A stretch of 51,925 bases of DNA from an uncultured Bacilli bacterium (GCA_947628965.1 CANRBV010000005.1:1-51925), one strand, 5' to 3'. Positions 13,650-42,804 are shown, counted from the first letter of the stretch. Notes: a model not told the origin generated them from the letters alone. Numbers and translations are program-made.

Positions 13650-13982
13650 CTATATTTTAATTAATTGTAATGCAGACAACTCATTTTCTACTTCTTTTAT
13701 ATGCAATCGTTGAATGAATTTTTTTATTGTTTCTGTTACTTCACAAACATAAATTTTTCCTTTATTCACTCGAATAGCACATTTGCTATTTAATAAAGCA
13801 TCGACTCCACTTTCATCAATCGTATTTAATTCATATAAATTATAAACTAAATATTTTATTTTATGTTTTAAAAGCACTGGAACTAAATAATTATTTAATT
13901 CATAGGTTTTTTTACTTGTCAAATTTCCTTTCAAGCGAACAAATAAAACGCCTTTATTGTACTCTAAGTCCATTTGAAACAT
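13650..13982 (-). CDS. spoIIAA: STAS-domain anti-sigma-factor antagonist, SpoIIAA-like
   Basis: GVLFVRLKGNL...LVYNLYELNTIDESG aligns with SpoIIAA VLCIRLTGEL...IVLNLEDLSFMDSSG. Confidence 0.8.
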   Translation of the reverse strand: MFQMDLEYNKGVLFVRLKGNLTSKKTYELNNYLVPVLLKHKIKYLVYNLYELNTIDESGVDALLNSKCAIRVNKGKIYVCEVTETIKKFIQRLHIKEVENELSALQLIKI

Positions 13983-14035
13983 TTTTGATCACCCGCTATA
14001 TGAATATAGTAAAAATTTTTAACTTTTTAAATACA

Positions 14036-14054
14036 TTCGACAAAGGATGTCAAA
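14036..14054. promoter_or_regulatory. Spo0A boxes upstream of spoIIAA
   Basis: Perfect TGTCGAA on - (14036-14042) and near-match TGTCAAA on + (14048-14054). Confidence 0.6.
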
Positions 14055-14078
14055 AAAAGTTTTTCAATAATTTAATTG

Positions 14079-14732
14079 TTATAAAGTTCTTTTTTTGTTT
14101 ATAAAGAAAAGAAAGAGAAAGATAATACCCAAAAATAGTATAGTTAAAGCTAGCAAAAAATTTCCTAGTAAAGGGGTAAGGGGACTTTCAAAAGTATCTA
14201 AATAGACAACACCAAAAATTTCTTTAAAATTATTTTCATTCACCACTTCTTGTTCAAGAATTTTATTTAATGCACGAGTTGCTTCTTCTTGCAAATCTTT
14301 AGGAATAAGCTTAGTCATTCCTTTTATCGTTACACTTGAAGGGGCTTCCATTTTTGCTTCACTATAAGAATAGGTATAGATTTCATCCAATTGTTTTCTT
14401 GTTTTATCATTTAAATCAACTAAATAAACATTTTCACTATCCCAAATAAAATACGTTTTATGTTCTATTCCAGCATAATCGTGAGTAACAAAATAATCGG
14501 TCATCACGTTTGCTTCTATCTTAGCGTATACATCTTGCCTTCTAACACTTTTTAAATCGGCTACAGTAGCGAATCTATTTTTGGCATTTAAATAAAGAAG
14601 CAAGACAAACAAAATTCCAATTATGAAAAAAAGAACCCCAAGAAAAACATTGCGATTGTAACTCAGTTTTTTTAAAAGTTCTTTTTTTGTTTTCATTGGC
14701 AATTTCTCCATTTCTATTAAAGAATATATCAA
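14079..14732 (-). CDS. Hypothetical membrane protein (two TM helices flanking a soluble domain)
   Basis: Hydrophobic segments at both ends; start codon uncertain. Confidence 0.7.
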   Translation of the reverse strand: MIYSLIEMEKLPMKTKKELLKKLSYNRNVFLGVLFFIIGILFVLLLYLNAKNRFATVADLKSVRRQDVYAKIEANVMTDYFVTHDYAGIEHKTYFIWDSENVYLVDLNDKTRKQLDEIYTYSYSEAKMEAPSSVTIKGMTKLIPKDLQEEATRALNKILEQEVVNENNFKEIFGVVYLDTFESPLTPLLGNFLLALTILFLGIIFLFLFFINKKRTL

Positions 14733-14758
14733 AATGCCTTTATTTAGTAAATATTTTT

Positions 14759-16237
14759 TTATTCATTTTCCCTTAAAGATTTTATCTTTTCTTTTGCTTC
14801 GTTTATAGAATCAAGATTTGGTTCCATAACATAGGATTTAACGGTTTTATAAGAGTAAGTATATTGATGAGCATCCGTTCCCGTTAAAGAATAGTTAGAA
14901 AAAGACCAAGAAGGCATCTCTTTAATTTGTTTCTTTACTAAAGCCGTTATATTTTCCGTACCTAAATTTGTAATAAATTTACCATTTAAAGCATTTAATA
15001 GATCATTATATTTTAATAGAATTGTTTTTGATAATGCTTTATTTAAAATCGCTTCTAATAATTGTTGTTGGTGTCTAACACGTCCTAAATCCCCATCTGC
15101 TAAACTTTTTCTTTCTCTAGCAAAAGCTAAGGCTTGTTTACCATTTAAATGATTGATACCTTTTTTAAAAGAATAGTTAACAACTTCTTCTTCCTCATAG
15201 TATGCTCTAAATGGTTCACTTACTTCTACATCTACTCCACCTAATTCATCGACAATCTTAATTAAAGAAGTAAAATTAACTTTTGCATAATAATTAATAT
15301 CAATGCCTAGTAAATCTTCAACGGTTTTTACGGAGGTATCAATACCGTGAATTCCTGCATGGGTTATTTTATCTTTTAAATTTGTATCTATCCCATGTAA
15401 TTGAACATAGTAATCTCTTGGAATACTGGTTAGAAGAACTTTATGTGTTTTTGGATTTACAGATACCACCATGTTTACATCACTTCTAGACACACTGGTA
15501 ATTTTTCCATAACTATCAATTCCTGAAATAAATATATTAAAAGGATCATTCGTAATATCAACATTTTTTATTAAATTATCTTGAATTTCAATATCAACAG
15601 AAAATTCATAAATAATTCTTTCTTTATCTTTGAGTTCTTTACACGTATCTTCTAGTAATGTTTTTTGAGCTTCTTCCATCAAAATAGCATCTACATTAGA
15701 TTGTATTAGGGCTTCTAATAAAGCATCCGTATCTTCTACTTCAATATATTCTAAAGATGTTTTTTTATTTAAATATTGTTTGGCTTTTGTAACCCCATCT
15801 TCTTTGGATTTCAAAATACCTATTTTTTTATCTTTAATATCTTTTAATTTTGTATAAGAACTTGTATTTAAAACAATAATACTATAATTCTCAGTATTGA
15901 AATTTCCTTTACTTAGATTATTTAGAAAAAATAAGGTATGAACAAAATAAATTAAAATAACGATAGTGCCAATTATTTTTAAAAGGGTTAGAACTGTTGC
16001 AATTCCTTTTCTTTTCCAACCTTTTTTTAAAGTTAGAAAGAGCATAAAAAAATCAAAAGAAACGAGTCCTACACTAAGAAGTCCAAAATACAAAATAGGC
16101 AAAACATTTAACTTGGCAAGAGCAATTAAAAAGAGAATCGTAAAAGAAAAAGAAACATAAAATAAACGTCGAAATATTTTTTTCTTACCATGTTTTCTTC
16201 TTGTATTTTTAGTATTTGCATTACTCGAATTTTTCAT
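14759..16237 (-). CDS. LCP family glycopolymer transferase, CpsA/Wzg-like
   Basis: Three N-terminal TM helices; FNIFISGID, SRSDVN, TSIPRDYYV, ALAFARER, GD.GR..HQQ. Confidence 0.92.
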   Translation of the reverse strand: MKNSSNANTKNTRRKHGKKKIFRRLFYVSFSFTILFLIALAKLNVLPILYFGLLSVGLVSFDFFMLFLTLKKGWKRKGIATVLTLLKIIGTIVILIYFVHTLFFLNNLSKGNFNTENYSIIVLNTSSYTKLKDIKDKKIGILKSKEDGVTKAKQYLNKKTSLEYIEVEDTDALLEALIQSNVDAILMEEAQKTLLEDTCKELKDKERIIYEFSVDIEIQDNLIKNVDITNDPFNIFISGIDSYGKITSVSRSDVNMVVSVNPKTHKVLLTSIPRDYYVQLHGIDTNLKDKITHAGIHGIDTSVKTVEDLLGIDINYYAKVNFTSLIKIVDELGGVDVEVSEPFRAYYEEEEVVNYSFKKGINHLNGKQALAFARERKSLADGDLGRVRHQQQLLEAILNKALSKTILLKYNDLLNALNGKFITNLGTENITALVKKQIKEMPSWSFSNYSLTGTDAHQYTYSYKTVKSYVMEPNLDSINEAKEKIKSLRENE

Positions 16238-27751: not shown

Positions 27752-30700
27752 CTAGATGTTTGTATCTTTTGCTTTAAAATCTGTAAGCAATTTCACTTTA
27801 TATAGTTTTGCATTATTTATTACATATCCAAAATCATTTGGAATTTCCTCTCGGTCGTCTCTTGTAATTTTAGAAATTTTAAACAATGTTTGATCAGCAA
27901 CCCCACTACCAATCCATATTCCTTTCGTCAAATCCGCACCAACCTTAAACCATTCTTCATAGGTAAATGGTTTAATCACATCTGGATTATCGATGATAAC
28001 AAAAGAAATTAAGTTCATTTGAGCATCTTTTTTCATACATTCTCCAAACCTTTTTTTCGCCTCATCGCTTAACTTATTCATAAAGGAATAAAGACCATAA
28101 ATAAAGCAATACATTTTCTTTTGATTTTGAATAGAATCAAGTTCCATATGATTTTGTTCGTAAATAGCATAGACTTGATCAATATAATCTAGTATTTTTA
28201 AAAGATTTTCTTCAATATTTTTAGTAATATAGTTTCGAGTTAAATTTTCATTTGTTATAACATGTTCAGACGCATTAAAGAAATAAAGATTTGCATATTT
28301 CTCATAACAAATTTGGTTAATAAAAGCATTAAGAGTGGCATCTACATTTTCAATATCATAAGAACCGATAAAATGTAGGGCATTCTTAGAAAAGTTATAT
28401 TTTTCAACGGTAAGTGTCTCTTTATTTACCCCTACTGCAATAGAAAAATCATGAGATAAAGCACTTTCGATACTTTCAAAATTAACAACTTCAGGTAAAA
28501 CAGGAATTTTCTTAGCTCGATAAAGAGAAGCTTTACTAAATTTTTCACATACTTCCCTTATGTATTCACTCGTATTTTCTTGTTTAATACTTGCTGTTTG
28601 AAATTCATAGATTTTATCCTTTTTAAATAACCCTCTTCCCTTAATCTTCGATGGAACTTTACCACGAACATTACCAAGAATGGCTGAATAATCAAAATCA
28701 TTATTTTGTTGCAATGCATAAATTAAATTAAAGTTTTGTTTTAAACGCATACGGACACTACTTTCACTTGAAGCACTCATAACAAAATATATTCCATAAC
28801 GTGTTGCTTCTCTAGTAATCGTTGTTAATTCTTCATTTAAATCTTCATAGTTTTCAACAAAAGCTTCATAGTTATTAAGGACCACCACAATATTGGGAAG
28901 CGTTTTACCACTTGAACGTAAATAATTTATATAACTACCACCGAAACTAGCAAATAAATTTTTTCGATTTTGTAATTCCTCTTCAATCATTTTAAATAAG
29001 TTAATAATTTTATCGGTATCTCCTAAATAGGCGATATCGCCAACATGAGGAGCAGAAACAAAATTACGTAGAGTTTCTCCGCCAAAATCTAAAAGATAGA
29101 AATTTAATTCGGCAATAGAATACGTTGTCATTCCAGAATAAACGAGTGTTTCTAAAAATTCTTCTTTGCCACTATCCGCAATACCATACACGATGGCATT
29201 TCCACTTTCAAATAAAGGAAGCGTTAAAACGTATTGATTTTGGCTATCTGGATCATCATATTCCCCAATAATAGGATTTAAAATATAATTTTGACGTTTA
29301 AAATTGTATTTACTTTTCAAACTATCCACATAAATTTTTTCGGGTATTTTTTCTAACCATAGTTTTTTAATCTCTATATGTTCATTTCTAGCCAGATCAC
29401 TTAAGTATTTTACAACGCTAGATAACTCTTCTCCCTCAGCATGAACAACTTGAGGTTTTTGCGTATCCTTACTCATAGTTGTAATTCCAATATTATTAAT
29501 CAAATTTACAGAAGTATCTACGTCTTTTTTAAACATTTGACTTGGGATGTATCTTGCTCCAGCCCAAGCAGCTTGTCCCAAAGTAAAGACTTCATCATAT
29601 CCAACTTGTAAATAGAACCTTCCTGTTTTCTTTAAATAAGCAGCGTCTGGTTTTTTTAATACTTCTTGAGAATCTCCTGTATCTTGTACTTTTAAACAAA
29701 CACGAAAACGCGTATTCGACCAAATTTGTTGGTCGACAACACCGCCAGGTTTTTGAGTAGCAAGTATTAAATGAACCCCTAAACTACGTCCCACACGAGC
29801 AACTGAAATTAACTTATCCATAAATTCTGGTTGTTGTTCTTTTAATTCGGCAAACTCATCACTAATAATGAATAAATGGGCAATTTGGTCTTTTCCTTTT
29901 AAGCGACCTTCACGCCACAATTTTTGGTATTTATAAATATCAATGGTACTTTCATTTGTCATGACTCTCGCTTCATTAAATTCTCTTTGACGTCTTTTAA
30001 TTTCACTTTCGATAGATGCAAGAGAACGTGTTAATTCACTTCCATCTAAGTTCGTCATTATTCCTGCTAAATGAGGAAGGGTATAGTAATCGTTTTGAAA
30101 AGCTAAGGCAAGTCCTCCACCCTTATAATCGATTAAAATCACTTGCACTTCATAAGGACTATAATTAACCGCTAAAGAAAGTACATAGGAAATAATAAAT
30201 TCAGATTTACCACTACCCGTTGTTCCAGCAATCAAACCATGGGGTCCATGATATTTTTCGTGTAAATCCAAACTAATAATTTCTCCACCTTTACCAATTC
30301 CAACAGGAGTTTGTAAAGAAAGCATTGGATTACTTTTTTTCCATCGATCTAGTGAATTTAATTGTTCTACTTTCCCAACTTGGTACATTTCTAAGAAATG
30401 ATAAACATCTGGTAAACTGCTTTCTGTTTCACTTTTTATTTCTACTTTAATATTAGCAAGTTCTTTACTACAATTGTAAAGTTCATCCATAGAAGATAAA
30501 TCCATTTTAAAACTTTGGGCTTGCTCATTTAAAACACTTTTAAAAATAGCACATTCTTCTTGATTCACATGAATAAAGTTTTTACATTCATTAGGACAAG
30601 CAGAAACACGATCGACTAACATAATGATACTAAATCCATAATTTTCACTACTTCCTAAAATATTTTTAATTAAATCATAATTATCAATAGATTTAATAGC

Positions 30701-32350
30701 ATCTGTAACAAGAACATAATGAGGAACATGTTTTTGTTTTTCTTTACTTTCACGTCTTTCATGAAAAATTTTATCTAATTGATAAATCATTTCTCTATAT
30801 TCATCATTGGTAGATCCAAAATATCGAAAGGTATGATCGTTCGACCAACTATGAGGTAATGTTTTAACATAATCCCATAAGGATTCATTCTCTAAAGAAG
30901 TAAAGGTTACAATTTTCACTTCATCATAACTATAGTTAGTCATAATTTGTAATAGAAGTCGATCTGCTAATTCTTTTGTTAAAGCAGGACTCCCGACAAT
31001 TCCAGTTGCTTTATTTTCATAAAAAGAATACGTAATAGGAACGTCTCTTAAAATTCGTTTTGTTTCTCCTAGTTCATGAACTAAATCAAGCAAGTTATCT
31101 TCGGTTAGAGAAAAATGTTCTTCAGGATATTGTACTTCAATTTCCATTGGAATATTTCCAATTCCTACGGGAAGGTCTAAAAAATCTTCATCTCCAATTC
31201 TTCTTTGCCATAAACGTACATTATGGGCTCTTATAATATCAAGACATTCAGAAACACTTAGATTATTAGAAACTAAAGAGCTTTTTTGCTTATTCATTTC
31301 CATTTCAATTTCTTTTTCTTTTTTATCTAAATATTTTTTATAAAGTTTTTGACGTTTTTTCTCCCATCTTTTATCTGAAAATTTTTGATAAGCTTTCGTA
31401 AGAGTTGGCCAAAGTAGCGAACTTGCAAGCATTACAATACACATTGCAATAGAGGTTGCAGAATCACTTACGGTTCTTTCTCCTTTGTTAATTGCATTCA
31501 TTGTTGACATAAGCATTACAACACTCATCATAGACATGGTAAGCATTGGGCCAATCGTTAAAATCGCTGGTGTTTGATTTTCATCTTTTTTAAAAGGAGG
31601 AGCATCAATTTTCAAAACAAATTTATTAGTTTTTTCGTAAAATCTAGGGGTACGATAAAAATAATCTTCACCATAGTAATCTAAAGTTAATTCTTCATAA
31701 TTCTCATTAAAATTGGAAATTTCTTTTGTACATGTAGCATATAAAGCAGACGGAGCAACAAGACCATTTGGATTATTCACTAAAAAATAATCAGCACCTT
31801 CTTTGCGCATCAAAATTAGTTTTAAACCAAAAACAAAAATAATATCTCCATATTCTATTTTTTTTACATTACGGACACGTTTTTGATTTACATAAACAAA
31901 ACTATTTTCATCTACCAATTTTAACATATAATATTTTTCTTGCTTTTCAATTGTAAATATTGTACTACTTAATCCTGGTAATTGATAATTAATCTTATTG
32001 TTATCTCCATTTCCAACGGAAATACCTTCATCTTTGACTAAATTAAATTCTCTAAAAGTTTGATCACATAAGGGTGAACAATAAAGGTAATATTTTTCTT
32101 GTTTGTAATTATTTTTAATAGATAATAATTTTCCTTCTTCTAGCTTTACATAAGGGACCATAACTTCTTGATTATCAATAATGAAAGCTTCACGATTGCT
32201 ATATAGCAACCATCCTTCTTCCGTAGCATCAATATTCATCAAATTTATTTTGCGGCCATTTTCAAAATCGCTAAGCCAATAACTCCCTATTCTATTTTTA
32301 GGAAGTGTAAAGAGAATTAATTTATTTTCTTTTATGAGAGCTATTTGCAT
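27752..32350 (-). CDS. essC: Type VII secretion ATPase EssC (YukB-like)
   Basis: Two FHA-like domains, FYRTPR, two TM helices, HGPHGLIAGTTGSGKSE, IDYKGG, DEFAELK, GRSLGVHLILATQKP, two further FtsK-type domains. Confidence 0.95.
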   Translation of the reverse strand: MQIALIKENKLILFTLPKNRIGSYWLSDFENGRKINLMNIDATEEGWLLYSNREAFIIDNQEVMVPYVKLEEGKLLSIKNNYKQEKYYLYCSPLCDQTFREFNLVKDEGISVGNGDNNKINYQLPGLSSTIFTIEKQEKYYMLKLVDENSFVYVNQKRVRNVKKIEYGDIIFVFGLKLILMRKEGADYFLVNNPNGLVAPSALYATCTKEISNFNENYEELTLDYYGEDYFYRTPRFYEKTNKFVLKIDAPPFKKDENQTPAILTIGPMLTMSMMSVVMLMSTMNAINKGERTVSDSATSIAMCIVMLASSLLWPTLTKAYQKFSDKRWEKKRQKLYKKYLDKKEKEIEMEMNKQKSSLVSNNLSVSECLDIIRAHNVRLWQRRIGDEDFLDLPVGIGNIPMEIEVQYPEEHFSLTEDNLLDLVHELGETKRILRDVPITYSFYENKATGIVGSPALTKELADRLLLQIMTNYSYDEVKIVTFTSLENESLWDYVKTLPHSWSNDHTFRYFGSTNDEYREMIYQLDKIFHERRESKEKQKHVPHYVLVTDAIKSIDNYDLIKNILGSSENYGFSIIMLVDRVSACPNECKNFIHVNQEECAIFKSVLNEQAQSFKMDLSSMDELYNCSKELANIKVEIKSETESSLPDVYHFLEMYQVGKVEQLNSLDRWKKSNPMLSLQTPVGIGKGGEIISLDLHEKYHGPHGLIAGTTGSGKSEFIISYVLSLAVNYSPYEVQVILIDYKGGGLALAFQNDYYTLPHLAGIMTNLDGSELTRSLASIESEIKRRQREFNEARVMTNESTIDIYKYQKLWREGRLKGKDQIAHLFIISDEFAELKEQQPEFMDKLISVARVGRSLGVHLILATQKPGGVVDQQIWSNTRFRVCLKVQDTGDSQEVLKKPDAAYLKKTGRFYLQVGYDEVFTLGQAAWAGARYIPSQMFKKDVDTSVNLINNIGITTMSKDTQKPQVVHAEGEELSSVVKYLSDLARNEHIEIKKLWLEKIPEKIYVDSLKSKYNFKRQNYILNPIIGEYDDPDSQNQYVLTLPLFESGNAIVYGIADSGKEEFLETLVYSGMTTYSIAELNFYLLDFGGETLRNFVSAPHVGDIAYLGDTDKIINLFKMIEEELQNRKNLFASFGGSYINYLRSSGKTLPNIVVVLNNYEAFVENYEDLNEELTTITREATRYGIYFVMSASSESSVRMRLKQNFNLIYALQQNNDFDYSAILGNVRGKVPSKIKGRGLFKKDKIYEFQTASIKQENTSEYIREVCEKFSKASLYRAKKIPVLPEVVNFESIESALSHDFSIAVGVNKETLTVEKYNFSKNALHFIGSYDIENVDATLNAFINQICYEKYANLYFFNASEHVITNENLTRNYITKNIEENLLKILDYIDQVYAIYEQNHMELDSIQNQKKMYCFIYGLYSFMNKLSDEAKKRFGECMKKDAQMNLISFVIIDNPDVIKPFTYEEWFKVGADLTKGIWIGSGVADQTLFKISKITRDDREEIPNDFGYVINNAKLYKVKLLTDFKAKDTNI

Positions 32351-32363
32351 ATTACTACCCCTT

Positions 32364-32618
32364 TTAATATAAAATTAGTTTAGATCCATTTCTAATTTTA
32401 CTTTCTTTTACATATTCTTCTTCATTTATTTTTTCCCCTGTTTCTTGATCATACAAACAGGAAGTATGATCATCAATAAAGGCTTGATTACTTTCTTCTT
32501 CAATTATTTGAACAATCAAATTTTTAATTGTTCCTACTTTTTTTGTTGTTGGAATATAAAGATCAATGTTTTTTTCCAACATAGGAACGGTAACAACAAC
32601 GTATATTTTACTATTCAT
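32364..32618 (-). CDS. EsaB/YukD-like ubiquitin-fold protein
   Basis: 84 aa, IDLYIP...IRNGSKLILY ending; directly upstream of essC. Confidence 0.75.
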   Translation of the reverse strand: MNSKIYVVVTVPMLEKNIDLYIPTTKKVGTIKNLIVQIIEEESNQAFIDDHTSCLYDQETGEKINEEEYVKESKIRNGSKLILY

Positions 32619-32851
32619 TATACCCTCCTAAAAAAACAAATGAGCAAAATAACAAGAAGCATTAAGAAAAAAACACCAATTGCACAAAAAATAGCAAAAC
32701 GAATATTTTTTTTCTTTTCTACTACTGTTTCTATCTCAACTGTTTTATCAATACCTGGAACATAAGAATGAGCAAGACTTAATTTTGCTTTACAATTGAT
32801 ACAAATTTGATCCCCAGGATGGGTTTCATAACCACACTTTTCACACCTCAT
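32618..32851 (-). CDS. Zinc-ribbon single-pass membrane protein (full copy)
   Basis: MRCEKCG...CINC, C-terminal TM helix; stop overlaps the esaB-like start. Confidence 0.8.
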   Translation of the reverse strand: MRCEKCGYETHPGDQICINCKAKLSLAHSYVPGIDKTVEIETVVEKKKNIRFAIFCAIGVFFLMLLVILLICFFRRV

Positions 32852-32908
32852 GTTTATCACCCTTTATTATGTCTTTATTTTACCATAAGGAAAAATAAAA
32901 GAAAAGAA
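32687..32908. repeat. 222-bp direct repeat, copy 1
   Basis: Matches 34462-34683 (offset 1775 bp); no differences seen by eye. Confidence 0.92.
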
Positions 32909-32935
32909 AAACCAAATGATTTCACTTGATTTTTC

Positions 32936-34126
32936 CTATTTTTCTAAAAGCCAATCAAAGATATTTATTTGTTTTATTCCGTTATAAGATGTATATGGGG
33001 TGTAATCTGTTGTAAGTAAATATTTGGGATTATGGTCATTAATTATATCTAAAGATTTTAGTTCTCGTTCTAAAGTTTTTTCATCTTTTACAGTATAACT
33101 TACTTGATAATACTCTACACCTTTTTCATTTATAGCAACAAAATCAACTTCATTCATATCTTGTTTTCCAATATAAACTTCATATCCTCTTCTTAATAGT
33201 TCTAAATAAACAATATTTTCTAAAATACGGCCATCATCACCTTTTGTACTTCCTAACAAATAATATCTTAAACCAACATCAGAAACATAATATTTTGCCC
33301 CCGAAGTTAAATAATTTTTTCCTTTTATATCGTATCTTGGTGCTTTATATAAAACAAAAGATTCAACCAAAGCATCTAAATATTTTTCAACAGTCGGTAC
33401 GGATATTTTACGTCCATTTGAAGTCATTGTATTTGATATACTTGTACTAGAACAAATATTTCCAATATTATCAAACATAAACTTAATGATATCTTTTAAC
33501 ATGCCAATGTCTGAAATATCTTTTCGCTCTGCTATATCATTTACAATAACGGTATTATACAAGCCATCCAAATACATTTTAATATCTTTTGCATTATTTA
33601 GCATTAAAGTATAGGGAAAAGAACTTTTGGTAATATAATCAACATATTTTTTTTGAATATCATTTTCTCCCACATAAGAAATGTATTCTTTAAAAGATAA
33701 AGGTAACATTTTTATTTCAACGTATCTTCCTGATAGTAAGGTTGCTAATTCCCCTGATAATAATTTTGAATTCGAACCAGTAATATATAAATCCACATTC
33801 TTTTTTATGTATAAACTATCACAGGCTTTTTGAAAATCTATTACTTTTTGTACTTCATCAATAAAAACATAATTTTGTTTATTTTTTATTAATTTAGAAT
33901 CAATATACTCATATAAATCTTTATAATCTCTGATATTATCGAAAGTATAATCTTCTAAATTAAGATAGATAATTTGCTCATTAGAAACCCCCTTACTTTT
34001 TAAATATTCTATATACAATTCATATAAAGTTGATTTACCACATCTTCTTATACCTGTAACAATTTTAATTAATTTTTTATCTTTAAATTGAATTAACTGA
34101 TTTAAATATTCGGGTCTTTCTATCAT
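32936..34126 (-). CDS. AAA_14 + DUF4143 family ATPase
   Basis: GIRRCGKST, FIDEVQ, ITGSNS, KYYVSDVGL, LENIVYLELLRRG, EVDFVA...YYQV. Confidence 0.92.
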   Translation of the reverse strand: MIERPEYLNQLIQFKDKKLIKIVTGIRRCGKSTLYELYIEYLKSKGVSNEQIIYLNLEDYTFDNIRDYKDLYEYIDSKLIKNKQNYVFIDEVQKVIDFQKACDSLYIKKNVDLYITGSNSKLLSGELATLLSGRYVEIKMLPLSFKEYISYVGENDIQKKYVDYITKSSFPYTLMLNNAKDIKMYLDGLYNTVIVNDIAERKDISDIGMLKDIIKFMFDNIGNICSSTSISNTMTSNGRKISVPTVEKYLDALVESFVLYKAPRYDIKGKNYLTSGAKYYVSDVGLRYYLLGSTKGDDGRILENIVYLELLRRGYEVYIGKQDMNEVDFVAINEKGVEYYQVSYTVKDEKTLERELKSLDIINDHNPKYLLTTDYTPYTSYNGIKQINIFDWLLEK

Positions 34127-34443: not shown

Positions 34444-34626
34444 TTAATATAGAGCCAAAATAAAAATAGCAAAACGAATATTTTTTTTCTTTTCTACTAC
34501 TGTTTCTATCTCAACTGTTTTATCAATACCTGGAACATAAGAATGAGCAAGACTTAATTTTGCTTTACAATTGATACAAATTTGATCCCCAGGATGGGTT
34601 TCATAACCACACTTTTCACACCTCAT
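34444..34626 (-). pseudogene. 3'-truncated duplicate of the zinc-ribbon membrane protein
   Basis: Identical up to RFAIF, then ILALY-stop; most of the TM helix is lost. Confidence 0.75.
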
Positions 34627-34683
34627 GTTTATCACCCTTTATTATGTCTTTATTTTACCATAAGGAAAAATAAAAGAAAAGAA
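34462..34683. repeat. 222-bp direct repeat, copy 2
   Basis: Matches 32687-32908. Confidence 0.92.
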
Positions 34684-34693
34684 GAATTCATTG

Positions 34694-35404
34694 CTAAATT
34701 CTTTCTAAATCCTGTTTCAATTCTTTTACGTTTTTATAATTTAAATTTTTATCCTCTACTAGAGTTTTTCCTAATATAGAATCAAGAAGGAAAGGTGCTC
34801 CTATTACATGTTCCGTAATAGATAACTTTAACGATTCTTTTTCAATGATGATTTCATTTTTTGTTAAACCATAAAAAAGATTTTCTCCCGTAAATAATTG
34901 ATACATAATAATTCCAAAAGCATAAATATCATAGGATACATCTGCCTTTTTTTCATAAATTTGACTAAGAGAACAATATTTAATCGTTCCATATTCTATT
35001 TGTTCTCCTATAAAAGCAGAACTTCCCCAATCTAGTACATAAACCATTCCTTCTTTAGAAATCATAATATTATTTGGCTTCAAGTCACAATGGATAATAT
35101 TTTTAGCGTGCGTATATTCTAATATAGTACACAATTGAATTAAAAAATTACGTGTTGTCTTTCTATCATAGAATGTTTTATCTTGCAATAGCTCTCCTTC
35201 AATATATTCATAAAGAATATAATGCTGTTCTTTATTATATTCAACTATTTTAGGTACAAAAGGATATTCTTTTAATAAATTGACTTTTTCATACTCATTT
35301 TGTAATATTTTTAACGTTGCCTCATTAATTGTAGCCAGCTGTTTTTTTAAATATTTTTTATTATTACTAGAAATAACTTCACAATAAAAATTATCTTTCT
35401 TCAT
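34694..35404 (-). CDS. Small soluble Hanks-type Ser/Thr protein kinase
   Basis: YEYIEG, IIHCDLKPNNIM, LDWG, GTIKY, DIYAFGIIMYQLFTG; no TM helix. Confidence 0.88.
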   Translation of the reverse strand: MKKDNFYCEVISSNNKKYLKKQLATINEATLKILQNEYEKVNLLKEYPFVPKIVEYNKEQHYILYEYIEGELLQDKTFYDRKTTRNFLIQLCTILEYTHAKNIIHCDLKPNNIMISKEGMVYVLDWGSSAFIGEQIEYGTIKYCSLSQIYEKKADVSYDIYAFGIIMYQLFTGENLFYGLTKNEIIIEKESLKLSITEHVIGAPFLLDSILGKTLVEDKNLNYKNVKELKQDLERI

Positions 35405-35730
35405 CTTTTAATCTCCTGACTACTTTCACGACTCACAATTTCCGTAATATCCATTTGTTCTATTAGATAATAATTATTTGCATCTTCATTTTCATTTATA
35501 CAAGCATAATCAAAATCATTAAAATCTACTTCTACTATGGTATAGATGGCTTCACTATTGGCAATTTTAATTTTGTCTCCAACATTTAATTTTTCACTTA
35601 TAAAAGGATTTTTTCTTTTTTCTTCTAAATAATCATAGTACTCTTTTCCTTTTAAAATTTTTCCATCCACAGTTTCATATTGTATTTCATTTGTATAAAG
35701 TTCACTTGTAAAATTACCTTGTTCTTCCAT
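35401..35730 (-). CDS. Small acidic protein, candidate immunity protein
   Basis: 109 aa, directly after the effector; ATGA overlap with the kinase; SH3/KOW-like LNVGDKIKI...YTIVEVD. Confidence 0.65.
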   Translation of the reverse strand: MEEQGNFTSELYTNEIQYETVDGKILKGKEYYDYLEEKRKNPFISEKLNVGDKIKIANSEAIYTIVEVDFNDFDYACINENEDANNYYLIEQMDITEIVSRESSQEIKR

Positions 35731-35749
35731 TTATATCACTCTCCTTTAG

Positions 35750-35778
35750 ATTATAGTATGTTTATTTTATAAGCACAA
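35750..35778 (-). promoter_or_regulatory. Internal promoter for the small protein plus kinase
   Basis: TTGTGC-17 bp-TATAAT upstream of an AAGGAG RBS. Confidence 0.5.
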
Positions 35779-35821
35779 TCCCCATTAAAATTCTTTTATT
35801 TTATCTAAACTATAAGACTTT

Positions 35822-38800
35822 TTATACTTCCGAATGAACTTCCTCATCTTTTACATTAGACATTTGGACAGATGAATTTTTATTTTTTATAGTGTTCATA
35901 TCATCTAATTGTTCAATATTTATTGTTTCTTTCTTAACATTCGAAGTTTCAATAGGAATTGCATCTACTTGAATAATATATTGTCTGCTTTCCTTATTAT
36001 AAATCGGAGCAGATTTTACTTTATATTGCATATTTCTAGGTAATAATAACTCTTGTTGGTTATAGCCTCCTACTCCAGTAAATGATTCTAAATACATAGC
36101 TTTCATACCTTTTGGTAACTCAATTCTTAACAAAATTTTTCTTGTCGAATTTATATGAGCTGGCAACACACTAGTACTAGAATGAGCACTATCATTTAAA
36201 ATTGTTCCAATTCTGATATCCTTTAATTTAATTTGTTCTCCATTTGAATATAATTGATTAACACCACGGTAAACCAACAAATTATCTTGTAGTCCTGGAC
36301 TTTGTTCTATCAAATTATCTAATATTTCATTTATTTGTTCTACACTCAAAGAATCTGATATTGGATGATTAGGATGAGATTCGTTATATTCTCGCTTACA
36401 TTCATTTAAATAGTCTTCTATAAATTCAAGTTTTGTTCCATCCATTCTATAATTATCATAATAAGTTACTGCATTTCTATTATAAGCCGCTAAGGCTGGA
36501 CCAAAATATCGTGTAAACATATAAATGGTTTGTTTCTCTATATTTGTTAAATTTAACTGTTCATTGTTCATGTACTTTATCAATTGTTTCTGTTCATCGG
36601 AAAGATATTTTTCTAACACATTATATAAAAGTTGTTCATCCATGTCTCCTACAAGTATATTTTTTCTTACTTTTTGATTATTTTCATCTAGTTTCATTTC
36701 ATATGTTATACCCTCTATACCGTGAAACATATTTTCTTCTATATCATATAAGTATTGCTTTGCATCATGAAAATAATTAGCAACTTCTTGTCTATTAAGT
36801 AAATTGACATTATTAGAAGAATCACGATGATAAATAGTATTTACAACTGTATTAAAAGATTTTTGAAAACGATTTAATTCATCTAAACTTTCATTTTTTG
36901 ATTTTAAATCATAAAGCAATTTTTGTTTTAAAGTAGAAATTTTATTTTTAATATTTGTAAAGCCATTTATTTTTAATTTTTCTGTTGTTTCTAATTTTTC
37001 TGTTGTTTCCATGTCCCGATTAGAATCTAAATCTGCATTTTTCATTTCCATATAAATTTGTTCTATTTCTTCAGGTTTGTAATTATATATACCTTTTTCC
37101 ATATTATCTGCAATAGCTGAATACTTTATATCCATCATTTGGAGCCATTCTTCACCAAATAGTTCTTTAGAAATTTCTAAAGCTGTTTGCATATCATAAA
37201 ATTTCATTCTTGTAAAATCAGCAAATTGTTCATCAAAACTTCTAGATGGATTGGCTTGAAAATAATTTTTATCATGTGTACGTAAAAAACCATTATCATA
37301 AATTGTACTATAATAAGGATTATCCCCATTATAAATACTATCTACAATACCGCAGATAACATCATAAATCTGCATTGTTTCATCATTATCACACATATAA
37401 AAGAAATTGTTTTTTCCCCATTCATTTTTATATCCACTAAGAATATATTCTTTTATCTTTGCTTTATCATTTGCTTCTATCAACTGATTAACTGTTTCTG
37501 GTTTATCCTTCTTAATTTTACAAGCATCTTCTAAAGATTCTCGAAGAGAAGTAGGATTTTCCATTATTTTTTCTATTTCTGCATCAAAAGTTTCTTTATT
37601 ATATTCCATGTAATTATTTACATCTATAATAGATTGTTGCCATAATCTTTCTTTGTAATCGCGTGCTTCTTGTAAAAAAGATTCTATCTTTTTAGGATTA
37701 TTCTTCCATTTTGTTTTTATATTTTCTGAAATATCTGAATATTCATCTGGTACATGAACTCCATCAATTAAATGAAAAAGTGCATGGCCAAGTTCATGAG
37801 AAAATGTTCCATTACTAATCTCAATTTCTCTTTGAATGTCAAAAGTACCATTATCAAATATATAATTTGTATCCCTAAACAAAGTTTTACCTAAAGTCTG
37901 AATATCGTATAAATTTATTTTTAGGACATTTTCTAATTTATTAATATTATTTACAATTTTTTTAGTACTTTCATCTCCCGTATTTAAAGCATGCAATAAA
38001 ACATCACTAAACACTTTAGCAGAACCATAATCCATATTATCAATATTGTTTCTAATATAATCTTGAGCGGACTTAGGTAATTTATTAAAATTAGAATCTA
38101 ACGTTATATTTTCTATATTATCAGCATTCAAAACTTCTATATTTCCCGTGTTATTAGCCTGCAAATCTAAAGATTTATTTTTGGGATTTTTAAATAAGGA
38201 ATTTAAATAACTATCTTTAATGGATTGAACATTCTTTTTATTATTAACATAAGCTTCAATTTTTTTTCCTTCTTCAGTATTTTTATAATTATCATATACA
38301 TCTTTTGAGACAGATTCATAAACTAATTCATCATTTTGTTGCTTTAATATAAAATATTCTTTGGTTGCATTTTGATTTGTTAAATCAAATTTTCCATCAT
38401 AACTAATTGCATGATCATCCAGATTTCTTATTTTTAATTTTGAACTTTCGATAACATCTGTTGTTGGCATAACTTTAATGGCTGTTGCTGTCAAAGGCAA
38501 ATAATCTAAATTGGTTGCAAAAGCACCTACATCAGGAATTTCGGAAAAAAAGAAAGTTTTTGGATTTCCATAAGAAGCATTTATACCACTAGGTTTAATA
38601 TAACCACTTTGAAGAATTTGATCTGCCGCATTGGTAAAATGATACAAACCACTTTTTTCAATTTTCTCATTTATTCCAACAAAATTATTCGTATTTTTAT
38701 ATACATATCTTTTTAAATTTGATTCTAAAGTAAGTCGCAATGATTGTGGTAACGAAAAATTATTATATTTTAAACCAGTTATTTTATTTTGAGTTTGAAC

Positions 38801-40900
38801 ATTTTGTTTTACTATTTGTGCATTAATTTCACTAGCTACTAGATTTGGTGAATTTAAAATTCCACCCGTAATGGCTCCATAAATAGCACTCTTTTCTGCA
38901 TTTTTTGTTACTTCTTTTAGATCAATTTCTTCATTAAAAATTTTATATCGCATTAAAGCATCTACATATTCTTGTGAACCTTCTTCTATACCTTCTTTTA
39001 ACATAGAGTGTGCAAATGTTTTTAAACTAGTAACATTAACATCACTTAATCCTGGTATTGCTCCTAAAAATCTTTCTAAAGTTGTTTCTGATACCCCAGA
39101 TAAAACTCCATATGCTACGGCATGTTTCAATTCTTTACCTTCTACCATCGCACTATGATAGCTACTACCTCCAGCACTTATTCCCATACTAATACTACCT
39201 ACCGCTGGTGTACAAAGAATACCTAAGGCCATACTTGGTAACATGTTTCCAATACTTTGGGATATTTCATAATTATTATCGAGTATTCCATCGTATTTTT
39301 CCGTATTTTGTAATGCTTCTAAAATATACATAGATTCATATTCATCTTCACTATAAATTCTCGAATCAATTTCTAAATTATTTTCAATTCCTAAAAGGGA
39401 AGAAGCATATGCCCCTACTCCTTTTATTGCATTTGCAAATCCGCTAAAATGCAACTCTGTTCCATCTCCAACACCTTTTGCTGTTACTTTCACATGATTT
39501 TTTAAAAAACTTGATAACCTTTTCTTGGTTTCTTCATTCGCTTTTTCATCCTCTAAACCATTTAAAAACTTTTGAGCTTTTATATATCCATTTAATTGAT
39601 TGACACTATTTTTAGTGGCAAATAAATATTCCTCTGCTGTATCTTTACCACATTTTTCCCATAAGTAATTATACATTTTTGCAAGTTCAGGATTCGTTTC
39701 CGATGCTTTTAGTAAACTTTCTAGTTCTCCTTTATGCTCTATTGTAATTTGATCTCGATTGAAGCTTTGATTTAATACTCTAAATTCTTCTAAAGGACTC
39801 ACCTTTATTCCATCTTTATTTGCTGTTCGGTAGGAATCTAAACTTAGTGTATCATACGTATAATCTTGATAATCCTTAGTCAAAGGTAATAAGTCATAAA
39901 TCACACATTTTTTTAATTCATTTGTTTTTTCAATAGAAGCTTCTAAAGTTGCTTTATCACTTTTTAAATCATTTAATCTTTTACTAAATTCTTGATATGT
40001 AAGAAATCCTGTTGATTCTTTTACTGAATTTGTTAATTCTTTTTCATTCTTAGCAAGAGTATCATACCATTCCTTTATGGTACTATCTTTTTCTTTACAT
40101 AATTTAAATAACGCATCAAAACTTAATTTTTTTAATTCTTCTTCTGTTATTCCTAATTCTTTTAATTTATCTTCATTAACCCCTAATGTTTTATAATCAC
40201 TAATTGCACCTCTGGCATCAGATTCTACTACTCTTTTTTGATCTTCCAAAAATTCATATTGTCTATTAAAACCTTTTTCAAAAGGTAATAATTTTGCTAA
40301 TTCTTCATCTACTATTTTTAATAATTCATTATATTCATCAATTTCTTTTTGGTACGCTTCTTCATATGTACTAAGTAAACTTTGAAAGTCATCACTTTCA
40401 ATACTTTCTAATAAATTGGCATTATCAGCATAGGCACCTAAATCCATATTAAAATTGTTATTAGCATCATTTAAGTTTTCTGTATCAAAAGTAGCCTTTT
40501 GAATTGTATTTAAGTTTGGAGTTTCTAAAGAAACATGTAGAACTGAAAAAATATCTTCGTCGGTTAATTTTAATTTTTTTAAGGAATTACGATATTGTTC
40601 TACAGAGCCTTTTGTACTTGAATCAAAAATATTTTGTGTTCCAATATTACTTAAATTTTGTTCAATAGCTTCTAAATCATTGGTATATTCACTAATATAT
40701 TCTGAAACGTTTTCAATATTCTTAGCAATCGTTTGATAATTTTTATTAATTTTTTCTAAATATTTGGATACCAATGTACCGCTCGAATTAAATCCATTTG
40801 GAATAAAAGTATTTTTTTTATTTTGATAGTAGGTTTTAAAATTTTTCATTTTATCTACATTTATTTTCATTGCACTCGTATTAGCATAAAATCGTTCCAT
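35822..40900 (-). CDS. Multidomain T7SS effector (helical N-terminus, Gly-rich hydrophobic region, HYD-like ART, HEXXH metallopeptidase, R-S-E ART)
   Basis: GLYHFT..I..SG.IKPS...SYG; SHELGH...EQFAD; VYRG...SSTS...LPKG...QQELLLPRN; lies within the WXG100/essC locus. Confidence 0.8.
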   Translation of the reverse strand: MERFYANTSAMKINVDKMKNFKTYYQNKKNTFIPNGFNSSGTLVSKYLEKINKNYQTIAKNIENVSEYISEYTNDLEAIEQNLSNIGTQNIFDSSTKGSVEQYRNSLKKLKLTDEDIFSVLHVSLETPNLNTIQKATFDTENLNDANNNFNMDLGAYADNANLLESIESDDFQSLLSTYEEAYQKEIDEYNELLKIVDEELAKLLPFEKGFNRQYEFLEDQKRVVESDARGAISDYKTLGVNEDKLKELGITEEELKKLSFDALFKLCKEKDSTIKEWYDTLAKNEKELTNSVKESTGFLTYQEFSKRLNDLKSDKATLEASIEKTNELKKCVIYDLLPLTKDYQDYTYDTLSLDSYRTANKDGIKVSPLEEFRVLNQSFNRDQITIEHKGELESLLKASETNPELAKMYNYLWEKCGKDTAEEYLFATKNSVNQLNGYIKAQKFLNGLEDEKANEETKKRLSSFLKNHVKVTAKGVGDGTELHFSGFANAIKGVGAYASSLLGIENNLEIDSRIYSEDEYESMYILEALQNTEKYDGILDNNYEISQSIGNMLPSMALGILCTPAVGSISMGISAGGSSYHSAMVEGKELKHAVAYGVLSGVSETTLERFLGAIPGLSDVNVTSLKTFAHSMLKEGIEEGSQEYVDALMRYKIFNEEIDLKEVTKNAEKSAIYGAITGGILNSPNLVASEINAQIVKQNVQTQNKITGLKYNNFSLPQSLRLTLESNLKRYVYKNTNNFVGINEKIEKSGLYHFTNAADQILQSGYIKPSGINASYGNPKTFFFSEIPDVGAFATNLDYLPLTATAIKVMPTTDVIESSKLKIRNLDDHAISYDGKFDLTNQNATKEYFILKQQNDELVYESVSKDVYDNYKNTEEGKKIEAYVNNKKNVQSIKDSYLNSLFKNPKNKSLDLQANNTGNIEVLNADNIENITLDSNFNKLPKSAQDYIRNNIDNMDYGSAKVFSDVLLHALNTGDESTKKIVNNINKLENVLKINLYDIQTLGKTLFRDTNYIFDNGTFDIQREIEISNGTFSHELGHALFHLIDGVHVPDEYSDISENIKTKWKNNPKKIESFLQEARDYKERLWQQSIIDVNNYMEYNKETFDAEIEKIMENPTSLRESLEDACKIKKDKPETVNQLIEANDKAKIKEYILSGYKNEWGKNNFFYMCDNDETMQIYDVICGIVDSIYNGDNPYYSTIYDNGFLRTHDKNYFQANPSRSFDEQFADFTRMKFYDMQTALEISKELFGEEWLQMMDIKYSAIADNMEKGIYNYKPEEIEQIYMEMKNADLDSNRDMETTEKLETTEKLKINGFTNIKNKISTLKQKLLYDLKSKNESLDELNRFQKSFNTVVNTIYHRDSSNNVNLLNRQEVANYFHDAKQYLYDIEENMFHGIEGITYEMKLDENNQKVRKNILVGDMDEQLLYNVLEKYLSDEQKQLIKYMNNEQLNLTNIEKQTIYMFTRYFGPALAAYNRNAVTYYDNYRMDGTKLEFIEDYLNECKREYNESHPNHPISDSLSVEQINEILDNLIEQSPGLQDNLLVYRGVNQLYSNGEQIKLKDIRIGTILNDSAHSSTSVLPAHINSTRKILLRIELPKGMKAMYLESFTGVGGYNQQELLLPRNMQYKVKSAPIYNKESRQYIIQVDAIPIETSNVKKETINIEQLDDMNTIKNKNSSVQMSNVKDEEVHSEV
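36974..37009. repeat. 18-bp tandem repeat in the effector linker (ETTEKL x2)
   Basis: TAATTTTTCTGTTGTTTC twice. Confidence 0.85.
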
Positions 40901-40983: not shown

Positions 40984-41481
40984 TCAATGACTTAATAGGT
41001 TATCAATCGTTTTTTCTAAGGTGGTAATATTTCGAGTTTTAGTAGCTATTAAATTACTTTTAGCGTTAATTTGGTTCACTACACCTTGATCAAGAATTGT
41101 TCTTTCTTCTTCATATTCTTCTCCATAATCATCTATATAAGAATATATTTCCGTTTTATATTTATGTTTTTCTAGCTCTACAATCTCTGCTTTTAAATTT
41201 TTTATTTCTTTTTCTAAAGTTTGAATTCTAATGATGTGTTCACAAGCGGTTTTTAAAGTGGTTAAGTTTTTTTTCAAAGTAGAAACTGAACCGATTTTAG
41301 AACTCGCCATAATTTCATCTGTTTTTGTTTTAATCACACCAGTAATAGAAGAATATAAAACATCAGAATTTGTTAAATTGGCTTTTATTGTTTCCAGACT
41401 ATAAATTGGTAATTCATTTAAAGCAGACTCAATTGTATTTTTTAAGGATTCTGCTGAAACATTTGAATATTTACTCATCAT
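40984..41481 (-). CDS. Helical/coiled-coil protein, probable effector partner
   Basis: 165 aa, amphipathic helices, immediately upstream of the effector. Confidence 0.65.
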   Translation of the reverse strand: MMSKYSNVSAESLKNTIESALNELPIYSLETIKANLTNSDVLYSSITGVIKTKTDEIMASSKIGSVSTLKKNLTTLKTACEHIIRIQTLEKEIKNLKAEIVELEKHKYKTEIYSYIDDYGEEYEEERTILDQGVVNQINAKSNLIATKTRNITTLEKTIDNLLSH

Positions 41482-41492
41482 ATCAAATTCCT

Positions 41493-41780
41493 CTAAAACT
41501 TCATATAATTGCTTATTCCGTGATCTGTTTTTCGATAATTTTCAACAACAGCATCCAAATATACTTTTACATTATAAAATTTAGTATTCACACTTTCCAT
41601 ATTATTTAAAATCATTTTTACTTGTTCAAAAAAATAGTTTCTTGTTTCAGAATTCCAATTGGCATTATTATAAATAATTTTATAAGATTCTTCCAGGGAA
41701 TCCATGATTGTATTAATTTTTTTAAAAAAAGAATTTAATGCCGTAGCATAATTTTCTAGTTCATTATAATCGCAATACAT
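41493..41780 (-). CDS. WXG100-like protein
   Basis: 95 aa, central W (WNS), C-terminal YRKTD (YxxxD/E). Confidence 0.75.
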   Translation of the reverse strand: MYCDYNELENYATALNSFFKKINTIMDSLEESYKIIYNNANWNSETRNYFFEQVKMILNNMESVNTKFYNVKVYLDAVVENYRKTDHGISNYMKF

Positions 41781-41791
41781 AGTTATCCCTT

Positions 41792-42085
41792 CTATTCTAT
41801 ATTCAGTTCTTTATTTAAATATTGTGTATCTACTATCTCTTCTGTTTTTACATAGCCTTTTACAAATTCATTAAAAGATTCTATTTGCTTTTTAAAATTA
41901 TCTAATTCACTCATAAAGTCATTCATTTTTGTCAAAAAATTAGAATATTCCTTTTTTTTCCAAATATTTCCAATATCTGCTATAGTTTTTTCTATATCAT
42001 TTGTATTGGATTCCAAATCTTCAATATATCCTTCACATTTATTTGTTTCATTTCGAAGTATTTTGGTATTTGCTAGAATTATCAT
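41792..42085 (-). CDS. WXG100-like protein
   Basis: 97 aa, central W (WKK), C-terminal YVKTE (YxxxD/E). Confidence 0.72.
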   Translation of the reverse strand: MIILANTKILRNETNKCEGYIEDLESNTNDIEKTIADIGNIWKKKEYSNFLTKMNDFMSELDNFKKQIESFNEFVKGYVKTEEIVDTQYLNKELNIE

Positions 42086-42095
42086 AGTATCACCC

Positions 42096-42159
42096 TTTTA
42101 TAAATAAGTTTTTAAATTATTTAAAAACTTATTTATAAAAACCACTTTAGTGGTTTTTA
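42096..42159 (-). terminator. Two overlapping hairpins after the tandem WXG100 gene
   Basis: 21-bp perfect inverted repeat (42096-42140) and TAAAAACCACT/AGTGGTTTTTA (42136-42159). Confidence 0.65.
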
Positions 42160-42804
42160 ACGTGCTACATCAGCATTTTGAGCATTTTCTGCTGCTTGTG
42201 AAATATTAGATATACATATTTCTAAATTGCTTAATACAGTTTTCATATTTGTTGTTAAAGTTTCTAATAATTCATCATGAGCACTTGCAGCAGCTTCTCC
42301 ATCCCATAAACCAGTTCCATCATTTACCTGCATAATTTCTCTTTCTAAGTTTCCATATACTTCTGTTAAGCGTTCTTTAATTGACTTTAAGCTTCCGCCA
42401 ATTTCTAAAATTCTTGCATAATCATAAACTACTGCTTCTTGTCTTATTATTTCAGGAACATAATCAGAAATATTAGAATAGCTTAAATTCATAGCTCCCG
42501 CTACGTTAGTATTTCCTCCTAAATTTGAAACTTCTAAGTTTTCAACATTTTTGTTTACAGAATTCATTGCTTCTTGAAAAGATGTACCAAAAGCATTAAT
42601 AAATTGAATTAAAGCCTTATGCGTTGCTGTAAAATCTTCATAGTTTTTTGCAGCGGCAGCTCCTGTCCATACATTTGGTTGAGCTAATGCATCCATTTGT
42701 TGTCCGAACTCTTTTGAACAACTTGAGATATTTTCGTCTAAATATCTTGCAACTTTGTTAGACCATTCATTAATTCTAATAGGGTCATATCTAAATATTG
42801 CCAT
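42157..42804 (-). CDS. Tandem double-WXG100 (EsxA-like) protein
   Basis: Two ~100-aa units, each starting YD and centred on WTGAAA or WDGEAA. Confidence 0.85.
   Translation of the reverse strand: MAIFRYDPIRINEWSNKVARYLDENISSCSKEFGQQMDALAQPNVWTGAAAAKNYEDFTATHKALIQFINAFGTSFQEAMNSVNKNVENLEVSNLGGNTNVAGAMNLSYSNISDYVPEIIRQEAVVYDYARILEIGGSLKSIKERLTEVYGNLEREIMQVNDGTGLWDGEAAASAHDELLETLTTNMKTVLSNLEICISNISQAAENAQNADVAR

Follow-up and report, generated by a model that had tools for sequence, protein, structure and literature searches.

A short soluble kinase encoded in the exchangeable toxin cassette of a type VII secretion locus

A stand-alone Hanks-type kinase encoded behind a polymorphic type VII effector belongs, as judged by sequence comparison of related loci, to the exchangeable toxin cassette, where it co-varies with the C-terminal type of the effector and not with the secretion ATPase EssC. 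The kinase lies in what is called here the window, the whole stretch of 51,925 nucleotides of DNA that was analysed, from an uncultured Bacilli bacterium (GCA_947628965.1, CANRBV010000005.1:1-51925) whose genome measures 1.23 Mb and is 91% complete. We tentatively propose that the kinase could be an active, effector-cognate accessory that modifies the toxin, or the complex of the toxin and its partner protein, inside the producing cell.

Gene organization and effector types

The window harbors a compact type VII secretion locus (Pfam and NCBIfam profiles) on the minus strand, where all of its genes given below are located. Four WXG100-like genes are followed by the effector gene, the gene of a 109-aa protein, the kinase gene, an AAA_14/DUF4143 gene, a zinc-ribbon gene, an EsaB/YukD gene and the EssC gene. 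The four small helical proteins (165, 95, 97 and 215 aa; 40984-42804) give weak WXG100 matches, with the 215-aa protein lying over the TIGR03930 cut-off; their homologues are found in loci L101 and L120, and they are probable secretion partners of the effector. EssC (27752-32350) scores 1025.6 bits against the NCBIfam TIGR03928 cut-off of 778.4, and adjoins, as in relatives, the gene of a ubiquitin-fold protein resembling EsaB/YukD (32364-32618; Pfam YukD E 2.2e-4). In the N-terminus of EssC, a second FHA-like region (ISVGNGD...SSTIFTI) appears, by eye, to lack the Arg and His that usually bind phosphothreonine, an absence that has also been reported for other type VIIb EssC proteins. The 80-aa zinc-ribbon protein encoded beside EsaB (32618-32860; weak Pfam DZR match) has one membrane segment and homologues in the equivalent place in L120, L122 and L123, and could be a membrane component, specific to this lineage, of a minimal type VII machine.

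The AAA_14/DUF4143 ATPase gene (32936-34126; Pfam), inserted between the kinase and the zinc-ribbon genes, is not part of the type VII system. A direct repeat of 225 nt, its two copies (32687-32911 and 34462-34686) perfectly matched, brackets the gene, and the syntenic locus L120 is without this insert, which reflects either recent insertion accompanied by duplication or an artefact of the assembly. The repeated segment comprises the start of the zinc-ribbon gene and the region upstream of it, so that a truncated 63-aa zinc-ribbon copy is left at 34444-34635.

The original prediction had named a small protein and a kinase directly behind the effector, and both open reading frames were recovered at the predicted positions, the 109-aa protein at 35401-35730 and the 236-aa kinase at 34694-35404. 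The coupling claimed for the pair was also borne out, the stop of the small gene and the start of the kinase sharing a 4-base ATGA overlap. The separate promoter ascribed to the pair is no more than putative: in the 91-nt gap between the toxin and the small gene (35731-35821), TTGTGC-N17-TATAAT, whose TATAAT could serve as a -10 box, can be read by eye together with the ribosome-binding site AGGAG, and a consensus promoter scan returned no minus-strand site there. The gap is peculiar to the window, since the distance from the toxin gene to the middle gene is at most 27 nt, or an overlap, in 12 of 12 related loci.

The effector (1692 aa; 35822-40900) shows mosaic similarity to other large proteins, with a homology break near residue 1332 that delimits a swappable C-terminal toxin cassette (residues 1332-1692; 35825-36907) containing an ADP-ribosyltransferase (ART) domain (Pfam ADPrib_exo_Tox, PF03496; residues 1494-1644; 58 bits against a cut-off of 23.4). 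The large proteins as a group are mosaics of at least three N-terminal and at least four C-terminal types. ART ends, often followed by an HD domain, are found in seven kinase loci, and all seven aligned ends share an invariant triad, R / STS / QxE. A second type of end, present in four kinase loci, belongs to no known family, has no sequence match in Pfam or the PDB, and is read as a putative Cys/His/Asp domain from its invariant Cys, His and Asp columns. The end in L101 is of unknown type, and that in L120 is weakly transglutaminase-like (E 0.0056).

Several features of the large genes and their surroundings were recorded in addition. In the ART ends of genus g25 (L098, 7800-9596; L115; L116), an HD phosphohydrolase domain follows the ART domain (Pfam E 4.3e-5, 3.5e-6 and 0.0087, respectively), and the effector of the window ends without one. 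The Cys/His-type domain of L125 (2221-9066), a locus that has no kinase, is located mid-protein (approximately residues 1179-1505 of 2281) with more sequence after it. In L120, the locus most like that of the window, an inserted IS66-family transposase gene (13651-15225) separates the small helical genes from that of the large effector, and a gene related to this transposase is found in L115 (13804-15285). In L099 (1168-5755), EssC is present as two overlapping open reading frames of 214 and 1318 aa, reflecting a frameshift or a sequencing error.

The kinase family and its linkage to the effector

The window kinase was recognized by Pfam Pkinase (PF00069) at 94.2 bits against a cut-off of 31.7 (E 1.1e-26), and its description in the original prediction proved right in each point: the catalytic loop (HCDLKPNN, residues 105-112), the DWG motif (residues 125-127) and the Lys/Glu pair are present, the latter as K21 and E37, which align with the β3 Lys and αC Glu of Staphylococcus aureus Stk1, and the Gly-rich loop, APE, membrane segment and sensor domain are absent. 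Among the 13 kinase loci fetched from small-genome relatives, K21, E37, D107, N112, D125 and D159 (the αF Asp) are retained in all and K109 in 12. The 21 residues ahead of the Lys contain zero glycines in the window, and from zero to two across the 13 loci, none of which has GxGxxG; APE is replaced by SLS in the window, with a Glu at that position in six of the 13 loci. No 19-residue stretch exceeds a Kyte-Doolittle mean of 1.19, whereas the adjoining zinc-ribbon protein reaches 3.27. A dN/dS of 0.10-0.23 in three close pairs indicates that the kinase is under purifying selection, and we infer from the retained residues that it is catalytically competent.

An AF2 model (pLDDT 92.4, pTM 0.90) has a two-lobed kinase fold in which the kinase domain occupies all 236 residues, and predicts a single hairpin (E6-13/E16-23) in place of β1-loop-β2-β3, β1 being absent. 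The best fold matches are PknB, Stk1 and IRAK4 (TMq ~0.8), with a Foldseek E of 3e-14 and TMq of 0.81 for PknB 5u94, and the nearest solved relatives by sequence are S. aureus Stk1 (4eqm/9ymt, E 5e-19) and Mycobacterium tuberculosis PknB (~1e-15). On the PASTA PknB/Stk1 profile NF033483, the kinase reaches 111.4 bits against a cut-off of 450, and covers profile positions 78-267 of 563 only. One ordinary full-length PknB-like gene (579 aa) is located on another contig of the same genome.

A profile search of 1.84 billion representative proteins revealed, among the best 150 matches, 29 stand-alone members of the family (228-262 aa; 26-42% identity to the window protein), in which K21, E37, H99, D107, D125, D159, Y161, G164 and Y223 are invariant and none of which has a Gly-rich loop. 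The short kinase is rare in the genome samples searched, which include many incomplete genomes: it was found in 5 of 301 genomes of the order sample, in 3 of 401 of the family sample (second matches in G235 and G139 are open reading frames of 700 and 1109 aa) and in 2 of 399 of the class sample, with 0 of 349 in genomes from 29 other families. The frequency is 7 of 53 genomes in genus g25 and 5 of 31 in the genus of the window. Each positive genome has one short-kinase match, always beside a toxin, and no orphan copy was seen. A contig scan with broader kinase patterns kept 80 of 421 relatives, all of them generic PknB-like kinases (24-40% identity), because the patterns were too general; a metagenome scan gave four distant loci, which were left out of the analysis.

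The order of large toxin, middle gene and kinase is maintained in 13 of 13 loci, with a gap of -47 to +9 nt between the middle gene and the kinase; this count includes L117, where the contig ends within the large gene, and L121, where the kinase open reading frame is 207 aa only. In L115 and L117, the module is found without EssC within the fetched stretch. The loci with closely related backbones indicate that the kinase is exchanged together with the toxin end. Between the window and L120, EssC is 91% identical and the toxin N-terminus 75% identical over 910 residues, whereas the kinases have 36% identity, and the toxin ends and middle genes are unrelated. Similarly, L098 and L100 are 84% identical in EssC and 83% in EsaB, but 32% in the kinase. 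Wherever the toxin end is common to two loci, on the other hand, the identity of the kinase tracks it, with values for kinase, small protein and large protein of 83/86/84% (L098-L114), 93/95/98% (L115-L117), 94/92/89% (L116-L118) and 49/49/52% (L098-L116). The check put forward with the original prediction, of whether the kinase goes with the effector type or with EssC, was thereby decided in favor of the effector, which speaks for a role tied to the effector within the immunity region. The independent backbone-matched swaps number two, the related genomes have a common history, and the co-divergence could be plain linkage within a cassette recombining as a block.

A kinase tree does not discriminate between toxin type and genus, since toxin type requires three changes (the minimum for four states) and genus likewise three (minimum two). 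Six of its 11 inner branches are unresolved, and L120, with the fourth toxin type, pairs with L121, with the second, at 98/93 support.

A kinase that accompanies EssC as a core gene was considered and rejected. Within the order sample of 301 genomes, EssC is over the cut-off in 142 and YukC/EssB in none, the short kinase is present in five, and two loci with the backbone of the window, L122 and L124 (EssC 69-71% identical, as measured for L122 on the fetched N-terminal 436 residues), have no kinase. By these counts, type VII secretion in the lineage operates with no EssB that could be detected and, in nearly every case, with no such kinase.

Partner genes and candidate roles of the kinase

Relatives of the small protein (103-122 aa) are located directly behind ART toxin ends in 8 of 8 loci, including one that has no kinase, and members of a 227-237-aa middle family behind toxin ends of the second type in 6 of 6. 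The middle gene thus appears to be the constant partner of each toxin type. No Pfam match and, in a collection of 5.8 billion proteins, no close relative was found for the small protein, and an ESM Atlas search with it and one middle protein gave no usable match. Its model has a pLDDT of 66.7, with a better core at residues 45-104, which is predicted to form an SH3-like barrel. The top Foldseek match of this barrel is the DUF4176 structure 9dcs (E 0.012; Z 8.5 over 64 residues), tied with a Spt5 KOW domain. The L098 copy matches Pfam DUF4176 with an E of 3.4e-4, below the cut-off, and the small protein aligns to DUF4176 weakly in hhalign (E 0.001, probability 21%). Genuine DUF4176 genes are present upstream of the toxin in several of the same loci, and the middle 227-229-aa protein is not DUF4176-like.

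The kinase is less constant. Of 31 genomes of the genus, 14 have the N-terminal type of the window's large toxin, and the kinase is present in only five of those 14. In genus g25, the small-protein family is present in 7 of 53 genomes, six of which carry the kinase together with an ART-type toxin end; in the seventh, G867, the ART-type end (locus L126) has a 122-aa small-family gene behind it, and the next gene is already the conserved 214-aa gene, with no kinase. L124 and L125 combine the Cys/His-type domain with a 227-237-aa middle-family gene, again without a kinase. Since L124, L125 and L126 have toxin and partner but no kinase, the kinase looks like an optional third gene and is probably not the main provider of immunity. 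The original prediction that the kinase and the small protein together confer immunity was thus upheld in part: both genes are just downstream of the toxin and vary with its C-terminal domain, but constant presence with a toxin type was found for the small or middle gene and not for the kinase. We consider the small protein most likely to be the cognate partner of the ART end, acting as its primary neutralizer or stabilizer by binding; it is taken as binding partner and likely neutralizer because L126 offers no other candidate gene. The accompanying claim that the locus lacks ADP-ribosylhydrolase and macrodomain genes was confirmed, neither domain being matched by Pfam in any locus protein, with ADP-ribosylhydrolase (PF03747) absent genome-wide and one macro-domain open reading frame present on another contig.

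In the mechanism that we tentatively favor, the variable 3' cassette would comprise the toxin C-terminal domain (ART in the window), its cognate small partner and the soluble kinase. The small protein would neutralize or stabilize the toxin by binding, and the kinase, traveling and diverging with the cassette as an optional accessory enzyme, would act in the cytoplasm of the producer by phosphorylating its cognate toxin, or the complex that this forms with the partner. Phosphorylation could add a layer of enzymatic control, either silencing the toxin or timing the release of the partner before export. Both the activity of the kinase and the identity of its substrate as toxin or partner are inferred. 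Several observations argue against this mechanism. The kinase is dispensable for the toxin-partner pair, one kinase family is found with at least four unrelated toxin ends, which is unusual for a specific neutralizer, and the co-divergence is also explicable by linkage; the independent backbone-matched swaps are just two. In addition, the deep branches of the kinase tree are unresolved and the L120-L121 pairing crosses toxin types, and without a Gly-rich loop the kinase may bind ATP weakly.

A more far-reaching form of this proposal, which we regard as possible but doubtful, is that stripped-down soluble Hanks-type kinases have been recruited as enzymatic co-immunity proteins, each phosphorylating its own toxin whatever the fold of the latter. 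Were this true, no earlier contact-dependent toxin system would have had an immunity component based on a kinase, and the producer would gain a catalytic off-switch alongside the binding partner.

It is unlikely that the kinase is itself the true immunity protein, neutralizing the toxin by phosphorylation, with the small protein serving as a chaperone of the DUF4176 type. Such an assignment agrees with the location of the kinase within the immunity region and the swapped cassette and with the weak DUF4176 signals of the small protein, and small DUF4176 proteins are described, in passages of PMC12478183, as toxin-specific chaperones that adjoin immunity genes and stabilize toxins. Against it stand the kinase-less loci of both toxin types, with the ART end and small-family gene of L126 and the second toxin type and partner of L124 and L125, together with the lack of orphan kinase copies, and the DUF4176 match of the small protein ties with generic KOW barrels.

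We assign a similarly low probability to a function in export or maturation, in which phosphorylation would free the partner or mark the toxin for EssC and offer no protection. The cassette linkage data fit this equally well, as does the optional presence of the kinase, and effector-specific accessory families that extend across many toxin types are typical of secretion helpers, the DUF4176 chaperones being an example (PMC12478183, in part). Most type VII loci of the lineage, however, work without the kinase, as the EssC and kinase counts of the order sample illustrate, and the FHA region of EssC seems to lack the residues with which a phosphothreonine mark would usually be bound. To our knowledge, no export helper of the kinase kind has been described.

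Indirect protection by the kinase, either through phosphorylation of the cellular target of the toxin or as a decoy for a housekeeping PknB-type kinase, is improbable. The closest relatives by sequence and fold are indeed PknB/Stk1 catalytic domains, and the genome does encode a full-length PknB-like protein, but four unrelated toxin ends would need to have related targets, and the intact catalytic residues speak against a pure decoy. An equally small chance is given to the kinase being a second co-delivered effector, or a linked gene of unrelated function. Its optional, cassette-borne nature would suit either, and kinase toxin domains exist in polymorphic toxin systems (PMC3482391, in part); yet the kinase has no delivery domain, no extra protecting gene accompanies it, the window cassette holding only the small protein, which as L126 shows goes with the ART end and not with the kinase, and tight coupling in all 13 loci argues against an unrelated function.

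The original suggestion that the kinase stands in for the pseudokinase EssB is rejected as highly improbable, and so is a core role in the regulation of EssC: although the genome is without YukC/EssB (PF10140 has no match genome-wide at E 1, nor in the kinase at E 0.01) and kinases are core genes in other type VII variants according to sections of PMC11217815, the order-wide counts, the kinase identity of 32-36% where EssC identity is 84-91%, the lack of a membrane segment and the kinase-less syntenic loci L122 and L124 with the same backbone all contradict it.

Relation to known systems

Polymorphic toxin cassettes are understood as two-part units consisting of a toxin end and a binding immunity protein. 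In the window a third gene is added, coding for an enzyme whose catalytic residues are intact; among the related loci, with at least four toxin types, this gene is swapped along with the toxin end. If the kinase acts on the toxin or its partner, post-translational control would be added to interbacterial toxin systems, and a compact natural kinase without a Gly-rich loop would become available for study. In the literature consulted, no kinase was found to be described as serving a polymorphic toxin in immunity or as part of its cassette, and no soluble kinase linked to a cassette was found; in the sections consulted of Zhang et al. 2012 (PMC3482391), kinases are listed only as toxin domains in polymorphic toxin systems.

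Among known kinases, the PASTA kinases PknB/Stk1 have the catalytic Lys, Glu, Asp, Asn, DFG-Asp and αF Asp in common with the window kinase, which differs from them in its length of 236 aa and in having no Gly-rich loop, juxtamembrane region, membrane helix or PASTA repeats. Unlike the genomic PknB-like gene on another contig, it is encoded in the toxin cassette. EssB/YukC likewise has a kinase fold and a place in type VII loci, but the window kinase has no PF10140 match, membrane helix or outer domain, its catalytic residues are intact and not degenerate, and it varies with the toxin and not with EssC. The kinases TscD, TsdD, TseD and TsjD of type VII variants c, d, e and j are described in passages of Garrett and Palmer 2024 (PMC11217815) as membrane-bound core kinases with large C-terminal domains. 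By these passages, they resemble the window kinase in being Ser/Thr kinases with a conserved active site encoded in type VII clusters, whereas the latter is soluble, short, rare in its lineage and cassette-linked. Our results set the window kinase further apart from the kinases and pseudokinase (EssB) of type VII machines, the former being membrane-bound.

The DUF4176 chaperones, as characterized in part of PMC12478183 and by structure 9dcs, resemble the 109-aa protein in being the products of small toxin-specific genes beside a type VII toxin; the 109-aa protein differs in having no Pfam match, and its similarity to 9dcs is tied with that to unrelated KOW barrels. A precedent for toxin neutralization by phosphorylation is provided by TakA, which, according to PMC7205606, phosphorylates and neutralizes the toxin TglT; the likeness to the window kinase is one of description only, and TakA-TglT is an addiction module of two genes that involves no secreted toxin. 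Lastly, the kinase-fold enzyme SidJ modifies SidE, a Legionella effector family with an ADP-ribosyltransferase domain, as reported in PMC6858067, and offers a case of a kinase-fold enzyme switching off an ART-bearing effector. SidJ is a calmodulin-dependent glutamylase that is delivered into host cells, in contrast to the window kinase, whose residues are canonical for phosphotransfer and whose setting is bacterial competition.
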